From Thermotogota bacterium (GTDB taxonomy: Bacteria > Thermotogota > Thermotogae > MWEM01): a DNA stretch of 64,000 bases. The DNA lies in contig DAOPKN010000005.1 in the NCBI GenBank assembly GCA_035391225.1, positions 42,063 to 106,062 on the forward strand. The letters are read 5' to 3'. Position numbers and translations under genes: made by a program. Positions 18,131 to 31,822 of this stretch are shown here, in pieces (positions within the stretch are counted from its first letter, which is position 1; every line of letters begins with the position of its first letter). Below the pieces are notes generated by a model. It was not told the origin of the DNA. It ran no database searches and worked only from the letters and a program-made list of their open reading frames with translations.

Positions 18131-19381
18131 ATGGAATCTCCACCGAAGAAAGATGTGCAGTTCTACCGGTTTGCCGCCTACGGTTTCCTAAAGAATCTTC
18201 GCTTTTTCGAACCGTTCCTCGTGCTTTTCTTCCGCGACCAGGGTTTTTCCTTCTTGCAGATCGGCTTCTTCTTCTCCGTTCGTGAGGTGTCCACCAACCT
18301 TTTGGAAATTCCCACCGGGGTGGTGGCGGATCTTTTTGGAAGGCGCATCTCTATGGTACTTTCCATGGTGGGGTACCTGCTCTCTTTCGGCCTTTTCTTT
18401 TTCTTTCCCACTTTGGCCTGGATCTTCGTGGCCATGGTTTTCTTTGCCGTGGGGGAGGCCTTTCGCACGGGTACGCACAAGGCCATGATCTTGGAATACC
18501 TTCGGTTGAAAGGTTGGGGCAAGTGGAAAGCCAGCTACTACGGTTCGACCCGTGCGGCTTCCCAGCTGGGGTCCGCCGCGAACGCTCTCATCGCTGCGGG
18601 GCTCGTTTTCTTCTCGGGTTCCTACCGCATCGTTTTTGTTGCCTCCATGGTGCCCTACTTCTTGAACCTCCTCAACCTTGCTTCTTACCCTAAGGTCCTT
18701 GACGGCGAACGATCCCCAGGTAGCAGCCGGGCCACCTTGGGGCAATTCTTCCAGGTTTTCACCAATCCCCGGGCACTGCAAGGGCTATTGAACGGGGCCA
18801 CCTTCGATGCTTTTTTCGAGGTAGCGGGAAACTTTTTGCAGCCCATCTTGAAAAGCCTTGCACTCGCGTTGCCCGTTTTCCTTTTCTTGGAAGGGCAGCA
18901 GCGGGAAGCCATCGTGATCGGTGTCGCCTTCTTCGGGATTTACCTTGCAACCAGCCTGGCATCCGCACGAGCCGGGCACTTCCAGCAGAAGGTGGGATCC
19001 GCGGAAAAGGCACTCAACGCTACGTTCCTGTTGGGGGTTGCGTTGCTTACCTTTTCGGGTGTGTTCGTACTGTGGGGTTTTTCCATCGGGAGCGTGGCCG
19101 CTTTCTTTGGGTTGTACCTTTTGCACAACTTGCGCCGCCCTCTCACGGTTTCGTACGTAAGTGACCAGATCCACCATCGTACGATGGCAAGTGGACTCTC
19201 CGTGGAATCGAGCTTGAAAACTCTTCTGATGGCGATTTGTGCGCCCATTGCGGGTTGGGTGGCGGACCGTTTTGGAATCGGCTGGGCGCTGCTTTCCGGA
19301 GGCATCGTGCTGGGAGGCTTGTTTTTCGTGCTGCGCTTCACCAGGCCCTCATTCCCTCGAATCACAGGGGAAGAAGGGTAA
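18131..19381 (+). CDS. MFS transporter
   Basis: 12 TMs. Motif ADLFGRRISM. Confidence 0.75.
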   Translation: MESPPKKDVQFYRFAAYGFLKNLRFFEPFLVLFFRDQGFSFLQIGFFFSVREVSTNLLEIPTGVVADLFGRRISMVLSMVGYLLSFGLFFFFPTLAWIFVAMVFFAVGEAFRTGTHKAMILEYLRLKGWGKWKASYYGSTRAASQLGSAANALIAAGLVFFSGSYRIVFVASMVPYFLNLLNLASYPKVLDGERSPGSSRATLGQFFQVFTNPRALQGLLNGATFDAFFEVAGNFLQPILKSLALALPVFLFLEGQQREAIVIGVAFFGIYLATSLASARAGHFQQKVGSAEKALNATFLLGVALLTFSGVFVLWGFSIGSVAAFFGLYLLHNLRRPLTVSYVSDQIHHRTMASGLSVESSLKTLLMAICAPIAGWVADRFGIGWALLSGGIVLGGLFFVLRFTRPSFPRITGEEG

Positions 19382-19383
19382 CA

Positions 19384-20778
19384 ATGCCCACTTCTTCCCC
19401 GTGTAATGCCGTGGTGGTTCTTTCCTCTTTCTTTGACTTGGGATCCCTGGAAGCCTTCCTGCGAAACCTGCTTCTTCCACCCGCAACAACCCTTTTCGTG
19501 GCGCAACGCTTGGCACCCGATTTTCCCGGCTTACTGGAAAGGGTCATACAGCGGAGCAGCAAGTACCCCGTGCGTTTCCCTTTGCCAGGAGAGAAGGTTT
19601 TGGATGGGGTGGTCTACCCTTACCCCGTGGGGTCGCAAAATGGCGTGATGCTCAGCGGTGAATCCTTCCAGCGGCAGCTTCGTCCGGTCTTTTCCCTTTT
19701 CTTCCGTTCCTTGCTCGAGGCTGAAAGAAAGGTTGCACTGGTTGTCCTGGGTGGGTTGGGAAATGAGTTTCCGGGTATGGTCGATCTCCTTTCCTGGTGG
19801 GATGGGCCTTTGCTGGTGCAGGATCCTGCTTCCACGCCGTTTCGGGCTCTTCCCGTGCTGGTGCAGCAAAAGCGTTTCGTCCAGCGGATGCTTCCCCCGG
19901 ACCAACTGGGTAGCTCCTTGGAAGAGCTTTTCCCGGGGCACAACGGAACTGCTCCCCCCCCCTCTTCCGCTCGCGACGTGCACTTTGCTCCTGCCTTCCT
20001 TCCGCGCGTGTTTTCCGCCCTCCGGGAGCATACCGGAAGAAACCTGGATCGTTACCGGAAAAATACCATAGTGCGCAGAATCGAGCGGCGCATGATCCTG
20101 CTGGGGATTTCCCAGGCAGCAAGCTACGTGGAACTGCTGCAAGCCTCCGCGGAAGAAGCCAATTCGCTGTTGCACCACCTACAAATCCATGTGACCTCTT
20201 TTTTCCGTGATCCGGGGGCATTCGAGGCACTGGCACAGCAAGCCCTTCCGCTTTTGGGTCATGACTCTGGGAGCACGAAGCTGTGGGTCGCGGGTTGTTC
20301 CACTGGCCAAGAAGCGTTCAGCCTGGCAATGCTTTTCCAGGAGCGATGGGGGCCAGCCGCTTCGGAAAAAGTGCACATTGTTGCCAGCGATGTGGACCCT
20401 GCCTCGCTGCAGTTCGCACGGCAGGCCGTTTACGCAACGCAACAGTGCGAGGGAATTCCAACCCCTCTCTTGCAGCGATTCTTTCACAAGGTGGGAAACG
20501 GGTACCAACCCCGTAGCTTGTTGCGTGACATGGTGGAATTCAAAATGCACGATGTACTCGTGGATCCCCCCCTTCTCCACGTGGACCTGGTGAGTTGCCG
20601 CAACCTGTTGATCTACCTGGAACCCTCCCTCCAGCAGGAAGTACTCTCGCTTTTCCATTTCTCCCTTCGTCCTGGTGGCTTGCTGTTCCTCGGGAAGAGC
20701 GAATCAACGCGGAAAATGGCTACCTACTTCCATCCACTTGTTCCACGATGGAAAATTTTCCGCCGCAAAAAAAAGTAA
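19384..20778 (+). CDS. CheB-like (apparently degenerate) methylesterase domain fused to CheR-type MCP methyltransferase
   Basis: ATG at 19384 (3 nt after the MFS stop). C-terminal CheR motifs LWVAGCSTGQEAFSLAMLF and CRNLLIYL. N-terminal ~190 aa aligns in outline to CheB_methylest but lacks the GASTGG catalytic-Ser motif. ORF track start 19237 is an upstream extension. Confidence 0.7.
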   Translation: MPTSSPCNAVVVLSSFFDLGSLEAFLRNLLLPPATTLFVAQRLAPDFPGLLERVIQRSSKYPVRFPLPGEKVLDGVVYPYPVGSQNGVMLSGESFQRQLRPVFSLFFRSLLEAERKVALVVLGGLGNEFPGMVDLLSWWDGPLLVQDPASTPFRALPVLVQQKRFVQRMLPPDQLGSSLEELFPGHNGTAPPPSSARDVHFAPAFLPRVFSALREHTGRNLDRYRKNTIVRRIERRMILLGISQAASYVELLQASAEEANSLLHHLQIHVTSFFRDPGAFEALAQQALPLLGHDSGSTKLWVAGCSTGQEAFSLAMLFQERWGPAASEKVHIVASDVDPASLQFARQAVYATQQCEGIPTPLLQRFFHKVGNGYQPRSLLRDMVEFKMHDVLVDPPLLHVDLVSCRNLLIYLEPSLQQEVLSLFHFSLRPGGLLFLGKSESTRKMATYFHPLVPRWKIFRRKKK

Positions 20779-20793
20779 CCCCCGCAAGGGGGG
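20767..20793. terminator. Hairpin terminator (CCCCC-GCAA-GGGGG) between the convergent cheBR-like and amidohydrolase genes; strongest for the minus-strand operon
   Basis: A8 tract at 20767-20774 followed by the G/C hairpin at 20779-20793. On the minus strand this reads hairpin plus T8. Confidence 0.6.
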
Positions 20794-20823
20794 TTATCCG
20801 AGTTGCTTCGTTTGGTAGATCGT

Positions 20824-21975
20824 TTAGCGCGAAAGCCACCCGTCCACGTTGTTCCATACCACGCGGGACCTGGCGTCAAAGGGATGGCCATCCCAAAGGC
20901 ACATCATGGGGACCTTCCCTTCTTCCAATGTTCCGTAGCTTTCCTCCAGCTGCAGGATTTTCGCAGGGTTGATGGTGAGCGATTCGAGCATGGCCTTCTC
21001 CGAGGCACCGTATTGCACTCCCAGGCCAGCCTGGATGCGCAGCACCTCGGCGGGGAAAACCGGGTGATCGCTCATGCAGCCAAAAAGGATACCGGCTTTC
21101 TCTGCGGCACCGTAGGTGCGGTAGGTCATCTCGCGCAATTCCACCTTGGGGCGGCTTCCCATGTATGGTCCGAGAAAAACCGGGATCTCGTTCTGCTTGA
21201 GCTCGTCGGCCACCTTGATCAGCTCGGTTGCGTGTTCGATCACGATGTTGATGTCGAATTCCTTCTTGATACGAATGGCGGTCAGCATATCTTCCGCGCG
21301 GTGGCAGTGGATGCGTGCAGGGATTTCTTTTTCCAGTACGAGTTGGGCAACTTCCATCTTCAGGTCAGTTTCGCTGAACGGTTTGCCTTCCTTTTCGGCT
21401 TTTTCTTTCTTCTGCATGTAGTTCAACCCGTCAAAGAAGAACTTGCGCATCACCGCGGCTGTTCCCATGCGGGTCACCGGCATTTTCTTGTATTCCTGGT
21501 ACACGCGCTTGGGGTTTTCCCCGGTGGCCATCTTCAACCCGCAGTCCGCTCGGATCACCTTGTCTTCCAGCAAGTTGGAACGGGTGTACTTGGCGATGAA
21601 TCCCAGCCCCCCCACTGGGTTGGCACTCCCGGGAAGCACGCAGTACATCATCACGCCACCGCGGGCGGACTCCTCGATCCCCATGTCCGTCGGGACGAAG
21701 GCATCCATGCAGCGCACGTCGGCCGTGACGGGGTCAGAATACTCGTTCACGTCGTCGTACTCCCAGCCGTAGCCTTCGGGCATCAAGCCGATGTGGGAAT
21801 GCCCGTCGATGAAACCAGGCATCAGGAGCCCGCCCTTTCCATCCAACGTTTCCTCTGCAGTTCCCTGCACCTTGGGCCCCACTTCGAGGATGCTGCTTTC
21901 GTCGAAGAGAAGTTCGCCTTCGAAGGGTTCGGAAGAAATGGGAAAGATCTTGACGTTCGTAATGCGTTTCTTCAT
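20824..21975 (-). CDS. Amidohydrolase-superfamily metal-dependent hydrolase, paralog 3 of a tandem triplet
   Basis: N-terminal small beta domain then GFIDGHSHIG (HxH metal motif). Later CHRAED and EHATE motifs shared with the two upstream paralogs. Confidence 0.75.
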   Translation of the reverse strand: MKKRITNVKIFPISSEPFEGELLFDESSILEVGPKVQGTAEETLDGKGGLLMPGFIDGHSHIGLMPEGYGWEYDDVNEYSDPVTADVRCMDAFVPTDMGIEESARGGVMMYCVLPGSANPVGGLGFIAKYTRSNLLEDKVIRADCGLKMATGENPKRVYQEYKKMPVTRMGTAAVMRKFFFDGLNYMQKKEKAEKEGKPFSETDLKMEVAQLVLEKEIPARIHCHRAEDMLTAIRIKKEFDINIVIEHATELIKVADELKQNEIPVFLGPYMGSRPKVELREMTYRTYGAAEKAGILFGCMSDHPVFPAEVLRIQAGLGVQYGASEKAMLESLTINPAKILQLEESYGTLEEGKVPMMCLWDGHPFDARSRVVWNNVDGWLSR

Positions 21976-23129
21976 AGTACCAACTCCTGTTTTGAAGAAT
22001 CAAAGGCCACCTTGCCGTTGACCAGCGTGAACAGCAACCGGTGGGTGGGATCGAGCACGTCCCGGTCACACACCAGCAGGTCCCCGTCCTTTCCCTTTTC
22101 GATGCTTCCAATGCGGTCTGCTAATCCCAGGTTGCGCGCGGGATTGATCGTGATGGCCCGCAACGCCAGGTCTCCTGAAAGCCCGTGGTGCATGGCCAGC
22201 CCCGCTTGGATCGGAAGGTTAAGGATGGGAATCACGGGGTCGTCGGTGATCAGGCTGATATCGGAAATGCCCGCCTTTTCCAGGATCCCCGGAGTGCGAA
22301 GCGTGCGGTTGTTCACCTCGATCTTGTAGCGCGCGGTGAACATGGGTCCCACCGCGAGCTCCACGCCTTTTTCCGCCAACAGATCCGCGATGAGGTGGGA
22401 CTCGGTGGCATGCTCGAAGCTCAGCTGGAAACCAAACTCGTCGCGGATGCGCAAGATCGTGAGCATGTCATCCGCACGGTGGGCATGCACGTGTGCCTTG
22501 AACTCCCCATCCAAGACCTGCAATAGAGCCTCGTTCTTGGGATCGAATCCTTTCTCGTCTTTCTTCTTGCGGTAAGCGATCGCGTCAGAGAAAGCTTTTC
22601 GGATCACCGCCGCTGTTCCCATGCGGGTCATGATCTTCTTGGATTCCTGGTGGGTTTTCTTGGGATTTTCCCCCATGGCCATCTTCATGCCGGAGCGTTC
22701 CAGCAGCACGCGTTCTTGGTAGGGCACGTCCAAGTCGTTTTTGAGGGTGACGCCGAACCCCCCGATGGGATTCGCACTGCCAGGGAAGATGTTGAGGGTG
22801 GTGACCCCGGCGCTGATCGCGTAGCGGAAGCCTTCGTCGAAAGGCTTCACCCCGTCCATCGCGAGCAACTGCGGCGTGACGGGATCGGACCACTCGTTCA
22901 CGTCGTTGTCGCTTACCTGGTTGGTCTTCTCCCCGTGGATCCCGATGTGGCAATGCTCTTCCACCAATCCCGGGAACACGTGGAGACCAGAAGCCTCGAT
23001 CAATGTATCTGCCTTCACTTGGATGCCGGGTTCCACCCCGACGATTTTCCCGTCCTCCACGAGGATGTCACCCACGAAAGAAGGAGACGTCACCGGGTGG
23101 ATGGTTCCGTTTTTAATGAGCGTCTTCAT
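21972..23129 (-). CDS. Amidohydrolase-superfamily metal-dependent hydrolase, paralog 2 (start trimmed to MKTLIKNG)
   Basis: GLVEEHCHIG HxH motif. TRMGTAAVIRKAF and HVHAHRADDMLTILRIRDEFGFQLSFEHATE colinear with paralogs 1 and 3. RBS GGGAGGTG upstream of the trimmed start. 17-nt overlap with the upstream gene. Confidence 0.75.
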   Translation of the reverse strand: MKTLIKNGTIHPVTSPSFVGDILVEDGKIVGVEPGIQVKADTLIEASGLHVFPGLVEEHCHIGIHGEKTNQVSDNDVNEWSDPVTPQLLAMDGVKPFDEGFRYAISAGVTTLNIFPGSANPIGGFGVTLKNDLDVPYQERVLLERSGMKMAMGENPKKTHQESKKIMTRMGTAAVIRKAFSDAIAYRKKKDEKGFDPKNEALLQVLDGEFKAHVHAHRADDMLTILRIRDEFGFQLSFEHATESHLIADLLAEKGVELAVGPMFTARYKIEVNNRTLRTPGILEKAGISDISLITDDPVIPILNLPIQAGLAMHHGLSGDLALRAITINPARNLGLADRIGSIEKGKDGDLLVCDRDVLDPTHRLLFTLVNGKVAFDSSKQELVL

Positions 23130-24285
23130 CCCATTCACCTCCCACGACTTTCCCCTGGATGTAGGTGTTTTCCACCACGGATAACACGTCGAAAAAACCA
23201 GACGAAAGGACCATGAAGTCTGCGTCCAATCCAGCGGAGAGCGAACCCACACGATCCTCGATTCCCAGGATCTTGGCGGCATTTCGGGTGAGCAGGTCCA
23301 CGATTTGGGCTTCCGAGAGCTCCAACCTGGCCAGTATCCAGGGTTGCACGCGGATCAGGGACAGCGGGATCACGGGTGCGTCGGTCATTAGGGAAAGAAG
23401 CAATCCCTGGTCCTGCAAGATCTGCACGCTGTGGAACGTAAGGTCGTAGGTTTGGAACGAGCGTGCACACACGTTGAGTGGGCCAAGTATTGCCGGGACC
23501 CCAAGCGAACGGGCGAACTCCGGGTTCGTGTGGAGCGCCGTGGCGTGGTCGAGCACGTACTCGAAACCGAACTCGGAGGAAATGCGTGCGATGGTTTCGA
23601 TGTCTTCCATGTTGGCCACGTGGATGCGGGCCATCGCCTTGTGGTCCAGCAGCTCCTGGAGCAACCGCGTTTCCAGGTCATTTCCCCTTTCTTCTTCGGG
23701 TTTCTTGGCCTGGTTCTGGGCTTTCACCAGTTGTTCCCGAAGCAAGGCCCCCACGGCCATGCGCGTAAAAGGAGATTTCTTCTGCCCTTGCCAGAACCAG
23801 GATGGGTTCCGCCCGAATGCCATTTTCACCAGTTTCTTGGGTGTGGGAACGACCATCTTGTCCACGTTCTTCCCCGCGGTCTTGATCACAACGCCTTCGC
23901 CACCAATCACGTTGCTCGAGCCAGGTAACACGCAAACCGTGGTCACCCCGGCGTTTCTCGCACTGCGCAACCCCGCGTCCAGCGGGTTGATTGCGTCGAT
24001 GGCGCGCACAGATGGCGTGGCGGGAGAACTGTATTCGTTGGTATCGTTTCCCGCTTCCCATCCCGTCATTTCCTCGAAAATCCCCACGTGGGTGTGGGGG
24101 TCGATCATTCCCGGGTACACGTACTTGCCCTCCAGGTCAATTACCCGGGTGTCCCCTGAAGGTTGTAGATCCGTGCCAAAAGAAACGAAGCGCCCGTTTT
24201 CCACGCGAAAATCCAGTCGTTGCAGGCGGTCGTCCTTCCAAACTTGGCCACCTTTGAAAAGTTCCAAGTGTACCACCCCTTTCAA
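23113..24285 (-). CDS. Amidohydrolase-superfamily metal-dependent hydrolase, paralog 1
   Basis: GMIDPHTHVG HxH motif. Colinear with the other two (TRMAVGALLREQL, ARIHVANMEDIETIARISSEFGFEYVLDHATA). TTG/GTG start region. Confidence 0.7.
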   Translation of the reverse strand: MKGVVHLELFKGGQVWKDDRLQRLDFRVENGRFVSFGTDLQPSGDTRVIDLEGKYVYPGMIDPHTHVGIFEEMTGWEAGNDTNEYSSPATPSVRAIDAINPLDAGLRSARNAGVTTVCVLPGSSNVIGGEGVVIKTAGKNVDKMVVPTPKKLVKMAFGRNPSWFWQGQKKSPFTRMAVGALLREQLVKAQNQAKKPEEERGNDLETRLLQELLDHKAMARIHVANMEDIETIARISSEFGFEYVLDHATALHTNPEFARSLGVPAILGPLNVCARSFQTYDLTFHSVQILQDQGLLLSLMTDAPVIPLSLIRVQPWILARLELSEAQIVDLLTRNAAKILGIEDRVGSLSAGLDADFMVLSSGFFDVLSVVENTYIQGKVVGGEWDEDAH

Positions 24286-24376
24286 AATCCAATTCTATCA
24301 TAAAATACGCTTTCCGAAGAAAAAGTGCGCGCCAAATGTGTTACAATCCCTGTATCTGGACGAAGGGGGAAAGGGT

Positions 24377-25834
24377 ATGAAAAAAAACGAGAAGGTTTCC
24401 CTGGCAACCAAGCTTTTCTTCGGGGCCGGGGACATTTTTGGCGGGGGCGCTTTCAACATCGTGAACTTCTTCTACGCCATTTTTTTAACCGATGTTGTTA
24501 AGCTTAACATGGTGTACGTGGCACCGATCTTCTTGATCGGAAAGGTCTGGGATGCGGTGACTGACCCGTTCATGGGGCAGATTTCCGACCATACGCGCAC
24601 GCGTTGGGGACGTCGAAGACCCTACTTCCTTGCGGGTATCGGGTTGATCTTCCTCTCCTTTTTCCTGCTTTGGTTCCCGGTGGATTTCGCGGGGCAGGGT
24701 GGGCGATTCGCGTACGTTCTCGGGGCCTACCTTTTCTTCAATACCGTGGTCACCCTGGTGATGGTGCCCTACCAGGCCATGACCGCGGAAATTTCGCTGG
24801 ACTACCACGAACGCACGTCCATCAACTCCATCCGCCTCATCTTCTCGTTGGGGTCCTCCTTGGTGTGCGCGCTGTTCCCCATGATGATCGTGAACCGCTT
24901 TTCCCCGGACGTGCGCACCGGCTACATCGTGATGGCGCTGGTGTTCGGCGTGTTGTTTGCGCTTCCCTGGATCGGGGTTTTTGCCGTGAGCAAGGAGCGC
25001 AAGGAATTCCAGGGGGGCTCACGCGGTTTTTCGCTCAAGCAAATGATCGTGCAACCGTTGCAGATCAAGTGTTTCCGCCAGTTGCTCTGGATGTTCATGG
25101 CCGCGTACCTCTCCATGGACATCGTGTCGATGATTTTTGCCTACTACATGAAATACTACCTGGTGAAACCCAACCTTTTGCCGCTGGTGCTGGGCACGCT
25201 GCTGGCGGTGGAAATCCTGGCCATTCCGCTGTATGCAATGATCGCCAAGAGAACTTCGAAGACCCGCGCCTACATCATCGGCTCGCTGGTGTGGTCGGTG
25301 GGCGGGGTGATGGTTTTCTTCCTGCCGGCAACGGCTCCTTCCTGGACGATCTTCGCGATGGCGGCGCTGATCGGTGCAGGCGTGAGCGCCGCGGCTGTGA
25401 TGCCCCATACCATTTTTGGTGACGTCACCGACGTGGGAGAACTGGCCTTTGGCGAACGCCGCGAAGGCAACTTCAGCGGATTGATTACCTTTGCCCGCAA
25501 GCTGGCCTCCGGGGTTGCTATCGCGCTTGTGACAGCCATTCTGGGCTGGATGGGGTACCTCAACCCGGTGGAAACCGTGGAAAACGGTGTGCGCACCGTA
25601 ACCGAACAGGTGCAACCTTCCGGGGTACTGCTCGCCATTCGTATCGTATTGGCGTTCGTTCCCATTGCCCTGCTCGTGGTGGGGATTTGGGCCGCTTCCC
25701 GTTTCCCGCTGGATTCCAAGACACACGGCGAACTCATTGCTTTTTTGGGCAAGCAACGCCAAAAGGGCAAGGGGAAAAAGACCGATCCCTCCTCTGAGGC
25801 GGAGCGAGAAGCCTTGGTTCGAAAACTGGTGTAA
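24377..25834 (+). CDS. GPH-family (glycoside-pentoside-hexuronide:cation symporter, MFS_2) transporter; candidate sulfosugar/glycoside importer
   Basis: ATG at 24377 after GAAGGGGGAAAGGG. GPH-like N-terminus ...DPFMGQISDHTRTRWGRRRPY. 12 TMs. The 786-aa ORF-track frame is an upstream read-through. Confidence 0.75.
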   Translation: MKKNEKVSLATKLFFGAGDIFGGGAFNIVNFFYAIFLTDVVKLNMVYVAPIFLIGKVWDAVTDPFMGQISDHTRTRWGRRRPYFLAGIGLIFLSFFLLWFPVDFAGQGGRFAYVLGAYLFFNTVVTLVMVPYQAMTAEISLDYHERTSINSIRLIFSLGSSLVCALFPMMIVNRFSPDVRTGYIVMALVFGVLFALPWIGVFAVSKERKEFQGGSRGFSLKQMIVQPLQIKCFRQLLWMFMAAYLSMDIVSMIFAYYMKYYLVKPNLLPLVLGTLLAVEILAIPLYAMIAKRTSKTRAYIIGSLVWSVGGVMVFFLPATAPSWTIFAMAALIGAGVSAAAVMPHTIFGDVTDVGELAFGERREGNFSGLITFARKLASGVAIALVTAILGWMGYLNPVETVENGVRTVTEQVQPSGVLLAIRIVLAFVPIALLVVGIWAASRFPLDSKTHGELIAFLGKQRQKGKGKKTDPSSEAEREALVRKLV

Positions 25835-29725: not shown

Positions 29726-31822
29726 GTGAACGCCATGGGTTTCTTCCTGGTGAATGGGGATATGTTCGCTGTGCGGGACAGCGAAGACGAGGCACAGCAA
29801 TGGTTGCTGGAGCATTCCCTGGAATCGCCCGCATTCTTCGTGGGAGTGGGGGATGCCACCATCAGCATGCGCAAGGGGAATTTCACCATCGACCCCGCAT
29901 TGGAATGCCGCCTGCCCCTTCGGCACTGGCAGGTTCTCGAACAAGGTCCAGGTGTTCTGGGTATTCGATTCTTGCACGAGGGAGAGGTTGCGTTGCAGGC
30001 ACGCTTCCAGTTGGAAAAGGGTAGGGTACGCGTGGAGCTCTCCGCCCTTTCCAAGCGCTGGAATCGCTTTTGGATGCGGGTTCCTTCCTCCCCGGAAGAG
30101 AAGGTGTTTGGCTGCGGCGAGCAGTTCAGTTTCTTGAACCTGCGCGGCAAAAGGGTGCCGTTGTGGACCAGCGAACAGGGGGTGGGAAGGAACAAGAATA
30201 CCCTGGTGACCTTTTTCGCCGATGCGCTGGATGGTGCCGGGGGCGATTGGCACACCACGTACTTTCCGCAGCCCACGTTCGTGACTTCCACGCGAAAGTG
30301 GCTGCATTCTTCGGGTAGCGCGCAAGCCTACCTCGATTTCCGCAATCCGCGCTGGTTCGAACTCGAATGCTGGGAAATCCCCCCGGTAGTGTGGTTGGGT
30401 TCTTCCCCAAGTTGGGAAGCGTATTGCACGAGCATCACATCCCTCGTGGGAAAGCAACCACCGCTTGCCGAATGGAGCATGGATGGAGCTTGGCTCGGGT
30501 TGCAAGGTGGAACCGACGTCGTGCAGCGAAAGATCGAGGCCGCCCAGTCACACGGGGTGCAGGTTTGTGGGCTCTGGATCCAGGACTGGGAGGGGAAACG
30601 CATCACCGCTTTTGGCAAGCAGTTGATGTGGAACTGGGTGTTTGACCCCTCCATGTACCCCGAACTGCCAGAGCGTATCCGCGAATGGAAGGAACAGGGA
30701 ATCCGCGTGCTGGGGTACATCAACCCATTCCTCGCACTGGAAGGAAGCCTGTATCGCGAAGCATCCGAGAAAGGATACCTGGTGCAAAAACCCGGTGGGG
30801 GGGAGTACCACGTGGTGGTGACTACTTTCCCTGCCGCCATGCTGGATTTGACAAACCCGGAAGCATTGGAGTGGATCCGTAGGGTGATCCGGGAGAACAT
30901 GATTGGCATTGGTTTGTCGGGATGGATGTGCGATTACGGGGAATATTTGCCCACCGACGCGGTGCTCTTTTCGGGGGAAAGCGCGCACTCCTTCCACAAC
31001 CGCTACCCCGCTGTTTGGGCACAGACCAATTGGCAGGCCGTTTGCGAGGCGGGCAAGCAAGAACAAATCGTTTTCTTTACCCGGGCGGGGTTTACAGGTA
31101 TCCAGGCACACACCCCCCTGGTTTGGGCGGGAGACCAGACGGTCAACTGGGACAAGGACGACGGGTTGCCTTCCACCATCCCCGCGGCTCTGTCGCTTGG
31201 CCTGTGCGGAATCGGTGTGCATCACTCCGACCTGGGAGGTTTCACCACGCTGGACATCCCGGTGCAGGTGGAAGGGAAACACTACGAAGGTCTCGGGCGC
31301 GTTGCCCGCAGCAAGGAATTGTTCCTGCGCTGGTTGGAGATGAGTGCCTTCACCCCCGTGATGCGCACGCACGAAGGCAACTGGCCGCATCTGAATTGGC
31401 AATTCGACTCCGACGAACCAACGTTGCTCGCGTACGCCCGCTTTTCCCAGATCCACGCGCACCTCAAACCCTACTTCCAGGAACTGCTTCGCGTGTACCA
31501 GCAGACAGGCCTTCCCCTGATGCGCCCCATGTTCTTTTCCAGCGAGGAGGAGCAAGCCTGGGAAGTGCAAGACCAATTCCTGTTGGGAGAGGAGTTGCTC
31601 GTCGCACCCGTGGTGGAGAGGCAAGCAACGGAACGAGAAGTGTTCTTCCCCACCGGCAGCTGGGTGCACCTGTTCACGGAAGAAGAGTTCGGGCCTGGGA
31701 AGAGCAAGGTCGCGGCCCCGTTGGGAACCCCCCCGGTTTTCTTCCGGCAGGGAGGATGTTTCGCATCCCTCTTTCAAGCCCTTTCGAAACGGCAAACACA
31801 ACCAAAGGAGGAAAAAGGATGA
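29726..31822 (+). CDS. Glycoside hydrolase family 31 alpha-glycosidase (YicI/YihQ-like; candidate sulfoquinovosidase)
   Basis: 698 aa. WIQDWEG. Candidate nucleophile GWMCDYGE (Asp ~403) and acid/base WAGDQT (Asp ~470). The 67-residue spacing equals that remembered for E. coli YihQ and YicI. Confidence 0.8.
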   Translation: MNAMGFFLVNGDMFAVRDSEDEAQQWLLEHSLESPAFFVGVGDATISMRKGNFTIDPALECRLPLRHWQVLEQGPGVLGIRFLHEGEVALQARFQLEKGRVRVELSALSKRWNRFWMRVPSSPEEKVFGCGEQFSFLNLRGKRVPLWTSEQGVGRNKNTLVTFFADALDGAGGDWHTTYFPQPTFVTSTRKWLHSSGSAQAYLDFRNPRWFELECWEIPPVVWLGSSPSWEAYCTSITSLVGKQPPLAEWSMDGAWLGLQGGTDVVQRKIEAAQSHGVQVCGLWIQDWEGKRITAFGKQLMWNWVFDPSMYPELPERIREWKEQGIRVLGYINPFLALEGSLYREASEKGYLVQKPGGGEYHVVVTTFPAAMLDLTNPEALEWIRRVIRENMIGIGLSGWMCDYGEYLPTDAVLFSGESAHSFHNRYPAVWAQTNWQAVCEAGKQEQIVFFTRAGFTGIQAHTPLVWAGDQTVNWDKDDGLPSTIPAALSLGLCGIGVHHSDLGGFTTLDIPVQVEGKHYEGLGRVARSKELFLRWLEMSAFTPVMRTHEGNWPHLNWQFDSDEPTLLAYARFSQIHAHLKPYFQELLRVYQQTGLPLMRPMFFSSEEEQAWEVQDQFLLGEELLVAPVVERQATEREVFFPTGSWVHLFTEEEFGPGKSKVAAPLGTPPVFFRQGGCFASLFQALSKRQTQPKEEKG

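Follow-up and report, generated by a model that had tools for sequence, protein, structure and literature searches.

The closest described relative of the proteins treated here is that of PDB entry 3OOQ, 'amidohydrolase from Thermotoga maritima MSB8', a structural-genomics entry without assigned function, whose counterparts in cultured Thermotogota are encoded, as judged from relatives, by a single-copy gene. Several amidohydrolase-superfamily enzymes also work together in the s-triazine pathways, where AtzA/AtzB/AtzC and TriA/TrzC act sequentially on one ring; the enzymes there come from other subgroups, are not paralogs of recent origin and are not encoded by a coupled three-gene cassette, and nothing found here points to a triazine-like substrate. 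In contrast, a 64,000-nucleotide stretch of the genome of an uncultured Thermotogota bacterium (contig DAOPKN010000005.1 of assembly GCA_035391225.1, positions 42,063 to 106,062; hereafter the window, in whose numbering all coordinates are given unless a locus is named) carries three diverged 3OOQ-type paralogs in one operon, which we call A, B and C. As far as we could find, neither the triplet nor the A subfamily has been described before. We show that the three genes form a cassette that is conserved as a block in Thermotogota, and that each encodes a protein with the metal-ligand residues of its superfamily. We read it tentatively, with a confidence just short of even, as an autonomous operon supplying three catalytically competent metallo-amidohydrolases in fixed proportion, with C ancestral and with B and A bearing new, related specificities.

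A scan of one genome per species with an alignment of A-type proteins returned 18 loci from Thermotogota metagenome-assembled genomes, labelled Thermotogaceae, Kosmotogales, Petrotogaceae or Thermotogota. Seventeen of them hold a complete A-B-C set in the same order, the other (L027) being cut after B by the end of its contig, and metagenome contigs add two complete loci, so that with the window 20 complete loci could be compared. Co-occurrence, order and overlapping frames are strict in all 20, the B/C overlap always being 4 nt and the A/B overlap ranging from 1 to 23 nt (4 nt, ATGA, and 17 nt, respectively, in the window). The contigs with the closest homologs of B likewise always carry three adjacent amidohydrolase genes with B in the centre. 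Orthologs within the A, B or C group are 53-66% identical, as against 29-39% between groups, and in a neighbour-joining tree the three subtrees branch congruently, which indicates that the cassette has been passed on as a block over a long time. In the same tree, C groups with the single-copy genes of cultured Thermotogota.

One locus, L011, has a fourth, C-like copy (L011:8380-9528), 57% identical to C, which lies a short way upstream of the triplet and is separate from the coupled unit; proteins like it are found on other contigs (P0253-P0255). The C type can thus stand alone, as this extra copy indicates. In the window, no further paralogs beyond A, B and C were found.

The surroundings of the cassette are not conserved in the same way. 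When flanking open reading frames were compared all against all, no neighbour was found to be kept beyond close relatives; one subclade shares a PAS-like sensor upstream and HslV downstream. Outside the triplet-bearing clade, the single-copy relatives examined sit in contexts that have nothing in common, namely with a dipeptide transporter and DppA in Geobacillus, in a pectin cluster in T. caldifontis, with an ABC-2 exporter in Kosmotoga and with DNA polymerase I in Mesotoga.

The three proteins score above the gathering thresholds of Pfam Amidohydro_1 and Amidohydro_3 (PF01979/PF07969; 32-71 bits against cut-offs of 25 and 29.7) and combine the (beta/alpha)8 barrel with the adjoining beta-sandwich of the amidohydrolase superfamily. 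They are 32-40% identical to one another in the window, and since tblastn between the copies gives E-values of 1e-53 to 1e-78, their paralogy is far beyond chance. All three match 3OOQ over the full length (C, 402 bits, E 2e-119; B, 286 bits, E 5e-84; A, 259 bits, E 8e-76). A profile of 81 family sequences, which include A, B and C types, matches 3OOQ with an E-value of 4e-159, whereas in the PDB profile search the same profile reaches characterised amidohydrolases with 3e-19 at best and over terminal segments only; the full-length likeness to 3OOQ stands well apart from that to all other superfamily members. None of the three proteins reached a curated NCBIfam cut-off, their best scores being 30-67 bits against 225-786 bits, for families that included dihydroorotase, NagA, HutI, allantoinase/hydantoinase, Xaa-Pro dipeptidase, PhnM and nucleobase deaminases. 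Because these cut-offs are so far off and the close match is restricted to 3OOQ, A, B and C are, judging by their sequences, members of a distinct, uncharacterised 3OOQ-type subgroup of the superfamily, in which 3OOQ is the one structure solved.

It follows from the same scores that the assignments put forward in the earlier note for checking with profile hidden Markov models (IadA, NagA, Xaa-Pro dipeptidase, a deaminase or dihydroorotase) find no footing. That the genes are ordinary copies of a housekeeping dihydroorotase, NagA, imidazolonepropionase, isoaspartyl dipeptidase or Xaa-Pro dipeptidase is hardly credible: the partial NCBIfam matches and the JGI name 'imidazolonepropionase-like amidohydrolase' point in that direction, but most of those matches cover only the N- or C-terminal beta-sandwich, and they are weak. 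Public names are otherwise automatic labels, either generic or contradictory. To the cog1228 peptidases (the Xaa-Pro dipeptidases 3FEQ and 2P9B, and the L-Arg/Lys carboxypeptidase Cc2672, 3MTW) and to isoaspartyl dipeptidase (IadA, 5XGW) the triplet is 17-21% identical. It differs from them by a helical insertion of roughly 30 residues between strands 4 and 5, and their substrate-binding residues could not be aligned to it.

The subgroup itself is large, with at least 6992 clusters at 90% identity (E <= 1e-10, B as query) and 618 representatives at 50% identity (E <= 1e-30, A as query), a number that grows to about 7000 at E <= 1e-3. The literature that we found on 3OOQ amounts to a docking benchmark; nothing on the subgroup was found under cog1228, and the matches to cd01309 / Met_dep_hydrolase_C were irrelevant. 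A metallo bile-salt hydrolase reported in a preprint was also considered and set aside as belonging to a different family, its members being roughly 600 aa long. The three genes add new, uncharacterised proteins to a known superfamily, and to a subgroup for which a structure has been solved; they are nothing categorically new.

The residues invariant across the 81 family sequences are, in A numbering, H58, H60, D75, N77, E78, K148, R169, R177, H216, D222, H241, T243 and D296. Among these, a predicted structure model places H58/H60, K148, H216, H241 and D296 where strands 1, 4, 5, 6 and 8, respectively, end or immediately beyond, and all six are also invariant in the 20 A orthologs. The series HxH, Lys, His, His, Asp is the classical binuclear ligand pattern of the superfamily, as reportedly set out by Seibert and Raushel in 2005. 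Read in this way, the binuclear-subtype ligand set is complete in A, B and C, with the strand-4 lysine K148 presumably carboxylated. Numbering could not be transferred from E. coli IadA, as the local profile alignment to it spans only the N-terminal sandwich, and a global alignment, when forced, sets K148 against K162 but cannot be relied on further along; the strand-5 histidine was therefore assigned from its invariance and from the strands of the model. Position 218, the second histidine of HxHRAxD, is occupied by Y, A, G, E, S or I in other ligand-complete domains of the family, in which H216 is invariant, and H218 is consequently not a canonical ligand. The proposal of the earlier note that one copy (A), diverging at the second metal-ligand block with IHVANMED in place of HxHRAxD, might be non-catalytic is not supported by these observations: A retains the six ligands, the residue missing from its motif is not one of them, and its metal site is not to be regarded as defective.

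Around this common metal site the three proteins differ. The HxH motifs quoted in the earlier note (GFIDGHSHIG, GLVEEHCHIG and GMIDPHTHVG) were correctly read, whereas the blocks that it described as common to all copies, TRMGTAAV(M/I)RK, HxHRA(E/D)DML and EHATE, are present in B and C and replaced in A by TRMAVGALLRE, IHVANMED and DHATA, the last two of which are, together with GRNP and TDAP, the pocket motifs of A. At sites that are invariant in 13 single-copy members, A carries the fixed changes E153R/W, Y159W, H218A, R219N, E244A, K270S, E272Q, H297A and G316R, and so lacks eight conserved polar residues of 3OOQ-type proteins. With the exception of G316R, the model would put these sites no more than a few residues past strands 4-8, on the catalytic side of the barrel. 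B, whose HxH block reads VEEHCH, has fewer changes, namely D57E, Y160H and, in most orthologs, R213H, while its residues 218 and 297 vary, and C has almost none at family-consensus residues. The three copies thus form distinct orthologous groups that can be told apart by residues fixed near the active site, which bears out the suggestion of sub-functionalisation. Since C groups with the single-copy Thermotogota genes and keeps nearly all consensus residues, we take C, on sequence grounds, to be the ancestral-type enzyme and B and A to be derived.

Position 297 deserves separate mention. It is His in 16 of the 20 B orthologs and in all C and single-copy proteins, and is variable only within the B group; in the window, codon 297 of B (22240-22242) encodes Asp (ITDDPV), beside the strand-8 ligand Asp.

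Multiple copies of the 3OOQ-type domain are also found together outside the Thermotogota. Among the 147 best representatives for A at 50% identity, 34 are fusions that hold the domain two or three times in a chain of 587-1514 aa, the second copy being partial in a few. They fall within P0359-P0501 (e.g. P0384, P0397, P0445, P0359, P0360 and P0369), the named members of their clusters come from Acidobacteriota, Planctomycetota, Armatimonadota and Aminicenantes, and the sequences inspected have N-termini that, by eye, resemble signal peptides. In every fusion (34/34) exactly one domain is ligand-complete, in the arrangements +- (16), -+ (2) and -+- (16), where + denotes the complete domain. An Acidobacteriota metagenome contig (L057:787-8484) carries five adjacent genes with six such domains, in which ligand-complete and ligand-less genes alternate (g1+, g2-, g3+, g4-) before a fused +/- gene (g5), suggesting that pairs of an active enzyme and a pseudo-enzyme are the working unit there. 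Evidently, paralogous copies have been used together repeatedly in the 3OOQ family. We considered whether A, B and C might correspond by position to fusion domains 1, 2 and 3, and rejected this, as all three match the active domain best; fusions and pairs therefore arose independently of the Thermotogota triplet. These proteins, exemplified by P0384, P0397, P0359 and L057, are likewise uncharacterised, and they resemble the triplet in pairing two or three family copies. They differ from it in being single secreted fused polypeptides or active/inactive gene pairs, whereas the triplet consists of three separate proteins without signal peptides, all of them ligand-complete.

Such ligand-less partners, common in the family, lend some weight to the idea that A is a non-catalytic pseudo-enzyme with a structural or regulatory role, leaving the chemistry to B and C, and the roughly eight polar residues lost from A, which include the His beside the strand-8 Asp and the second His of HxHRAxD, would fit it. 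We nevertheless consider this improbable. Every pseudo-domain of the fusions has lost the metal ligands that are invariant among the A orthologs, and A-like states, with Ala at 218 and with Ala at 297, are seen in the ligand-complete domain of fusions P0367 and P0361. Moreover, the replacements are themselves fixed in A, which argues for a new constraint rather than for decay.

In the mechanism that we tentatively prefer, the cassette is a vertically inherited, autonomous operon, ordered promoter, A, B, C, terminator, whose overlapping frames would deliver the three proteins together and in fixed proportion. Because each of them keeps the complete binuclear ligand set, each is most likely catalytically active, as a metallo-hydrolase that cleaves an amide-type (C-N) bond, and the lack of signal peptides points to a cytoplasmic location. 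C, which corresponds to the lone gene of Thermotoga, Kosmotoga, Mesotoga and Petrotoga, would keep the ancestral substrate pocket, B would be mildly altered, and A heavily altered in polar residues on the loops above the barrel. With pockets so diverged, the three enzymes would be expected to have different, though related, small substrates, whether they work in parallel or one after another. The nearest folds and two invariant arginines hint weakly that the substrate may be a carboxylate-bearing amide, e.g. a dipeptide or an N-acyl amino acid.

Several considerations weigh against this mechanism. Catalytic competence is, throughout the family, a prediction from residues, and where the changed residues lie with respect to the metals is a judgement from predicted secondary structure. 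In addition, a fixed order with overlaps in every locus fits a complex or an obligatory pathway better than free-standing isozymes, and paralogous copies are physically paired elsewhere in the family. The last two points lead to another possibility, which we take seriously without thinking it probable: A, B and C may together build one obligate hetero-oligomer, in which paralogs take the place of the identical subunits of the T. maritima dihedral homo-oligomer. Function would then require the assembled particle, whether its active sites are of three kinds or A serves as a modified or regulatory subunit. The 3OOQ entry holds 10 chains and is listed as a dihedral assembly (bioRxiv 10.64898/2026.08.06.736029). 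A mixed particle would also account for the strictness of the cassette across deep divergence, and would be in keeping with the frequency of two- and three-copy fusions and with the alternating genes of L057, in which the pairing of paralogs recurs.

The comparison with the fusions also cuts the other way, since these confine the ligands to one domain, whereas A, B and C all have them and show no domain-by-domain correspondence to the fusions. Ten subunits, moreover, are not divisible by three, and the C type manages by itself, both in Thermotogota that have just the one gene and as the additional copy of L011. Gene overlaps of 4 nt are, furthermore, common in compact operons generally. In its most specific form, in which three subunits with intact metal centres and different pockets make up a particle derived from a homo-decameric ancestor, we regard the hetero-oligomer as rather unlikely.

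The gene boundaries used above required some correction (Table 1). The longest open reading frame of B reaches 23282, but the ATG at 23129, which has the ribosome-binding site GGAGGTGA 6 nt upstream, is the start that matches all orthologs; the resulting protein is 100% identical to P0001, which is named 'MAG TPA: amidohydrolase family protein [Thermotogota bacterium]'. For A, listed as 23113-24285, we moved the start to the TTG at 24267 on the basis of an alignment with 19 orthologous loci, the ribosome-binding site AAAGGGGTGG and the JGI gene call P0121, which also gives 384 aa; AAGGGGTGA or AGGAGG is kept upstream of the aligned start in all loci. This start codon of A (24265-24267 in the window) is TTG in 17 of the 20 loci, with a strong ribosome-binding site upstream, while B and C mostly start with ATG, and the TTG may be a conserved means of setting the A:B:C ratio.

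Table 1. Features of the amidohydrolase triplet and its control regions in the window.
Feature	Position	Strand	Remarks
Gene C	20824-21975	minus	383 aa; last in operon; ancestral-like copy
Gene B	21972-23129	minus	385 aa; middle gene; moderately diverged
Gene A	23113-24267	minus	384 aa; first in operon; pocket remodelled, metal-ligand set complete
Intrinsic terminator, hairpin TAACCCCCCTTGCGGGGGTTA followed by T-run	20766-20796 (hairpin 20796-20776)	minus	8-bp G+C-rich stem
Ribosome-binding site AAAGGGGTGG of A	24273-24282	minus	5 nt upstream of TTG
Extended -10 TGATAGAAT of triplet operon	24292-24300	minus	read from sequence
TGTGTTACAAT element	24337-24347	plus	faces GPH transporter gene

Pfam matches, frame overlaps and the terminator hairpin with T-run, 28 nt past the stop codon of C, agree with the initial description of three amidohydrolase-superfamily paralogs with coupled frames and a terminator of their own. 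A gene for a CheB-methylesterase/CheR-methyltransferase fusion (19237-20778, plus strand, 513 aa) converges on C; its final codons share sequence with the terminator hairpin, which could be bidirectional.

At the other end of the operon, an extended -10 element of the form TRTGRTAnAAT lies, by eye, 25-50 nt upstream of A in the aligned loci. Its version in the window, TGATAGAAT, was not called by a consensus promoter scan, because it has no good -35 element. The element TGtgTTACAAT, which had been described as part of a 91-bp control region shared with the divergent GPH transporter gene (start at 24377), is indeed present as TGTGTTACAAT, but it faces that gene, and the triplet has its own -10 about 44 bp away, the two being separate divergent elements; with the corrected start of A, the gap between the units is 109 bp instead of 91 bp. 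No shared operator was recognised in the intergenic sequence, and an Rfam scan of the window, this region included, gave no match. One subclade (L001, L015-L017, L019 and L021-L024) shares a sequence that reads roughly TTCG(N)TA(N)(N)CTAATCA and directly precedes the -10 element, about 45-70 nt upstream of A; a -35 region and a regulator site are both conceivable, and the window is without it.

Beyond this intergenic region, the plus strand carries genes for the GPH/MFS_2 transporter, an EamA transporter, an Fe-alcohol dehydrogenase, a split transketolase, a GH31 glycosidase and an RpiB-like protein, and the earlier note had tied the triplet to this sulfosugar-type operon. The triplet would then be an accessory part of the operon, sharing the divergent control region and deacylating or deaminating the substituted sugars imported by the GPH transporter, a role to which its divergent position lends itself, as does the GH31 enzyme, which resembles a sulfoquinovosidase (see below). 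Comparison of neighbourhoods largely refutes this role, which we consider very improbable. No homologs of the window's GPH, EamA, Fe-alcohol dehydrogenase, transketolase or RpiB-like proteins were found within 8-10 kb of the cassette in the 18 species-level loci or in the 2 metagenome loci, whose flanks are unrelated, and this is the very observation that had been named in advance as speaking against the tie. The only GH31 gene near a cassette elsewhere, in L001, is 2.3 kb away and encodes a different enzyme, 24% identical to that of the window. The triplet also has its own conserved promoter in every genome, which is separate from that of the GPH gene in the window. Since no gene of the neighbouring operon lies near the cassette elsewhere, and flanks are not conserved beyond close relatives, the cassette is very unlikely to have a functional connection to the adjacent GPH/transketolase/GH31 operon, and its position there looks accidental.

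In the neighbouring operon itself, the GH31 protein (29726-31822, plus strand) is 43% identical over the full length to E. coli sulfoquinovosidase YihQ, whose sulfonate-binding residues we take to be R301, W304 and Y508. In an ungapped alignment W304 is kept, R301 is replaced by Q (FGKQLMWNW) and Y508 by F (DLGGFTT). The 'sulfosugar' label is plausible but unproven, and the glycoside may be a different one.

For the biology of the organism, these findings advise against adding the three hydrolases to the adjacent sugar-sulfonate-type pathway as a further step. For the family, they define three orthologous subfamilies within a large subgroup that has had a crystal structure since 2010, and they bring out its habit of using several copies, be it as a coupled triplet, as active/inactive pairs or as two- and three-domain fusions. 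The pockets of C, B and A are handles for finding the substrate and for studying how enzymes evolve into pseudo-enzymes. Should the obligate hetero-oligomer prove true, the triplet would stand beside the active/pseudo-enzyme pairs and -+- fusions of other phyla as their 'all-active' counterpart, and the family would offer a natural series for the evolution of obligate hetero-oligomers from homo-oligomers, and of pseudo-enzyme complexes.

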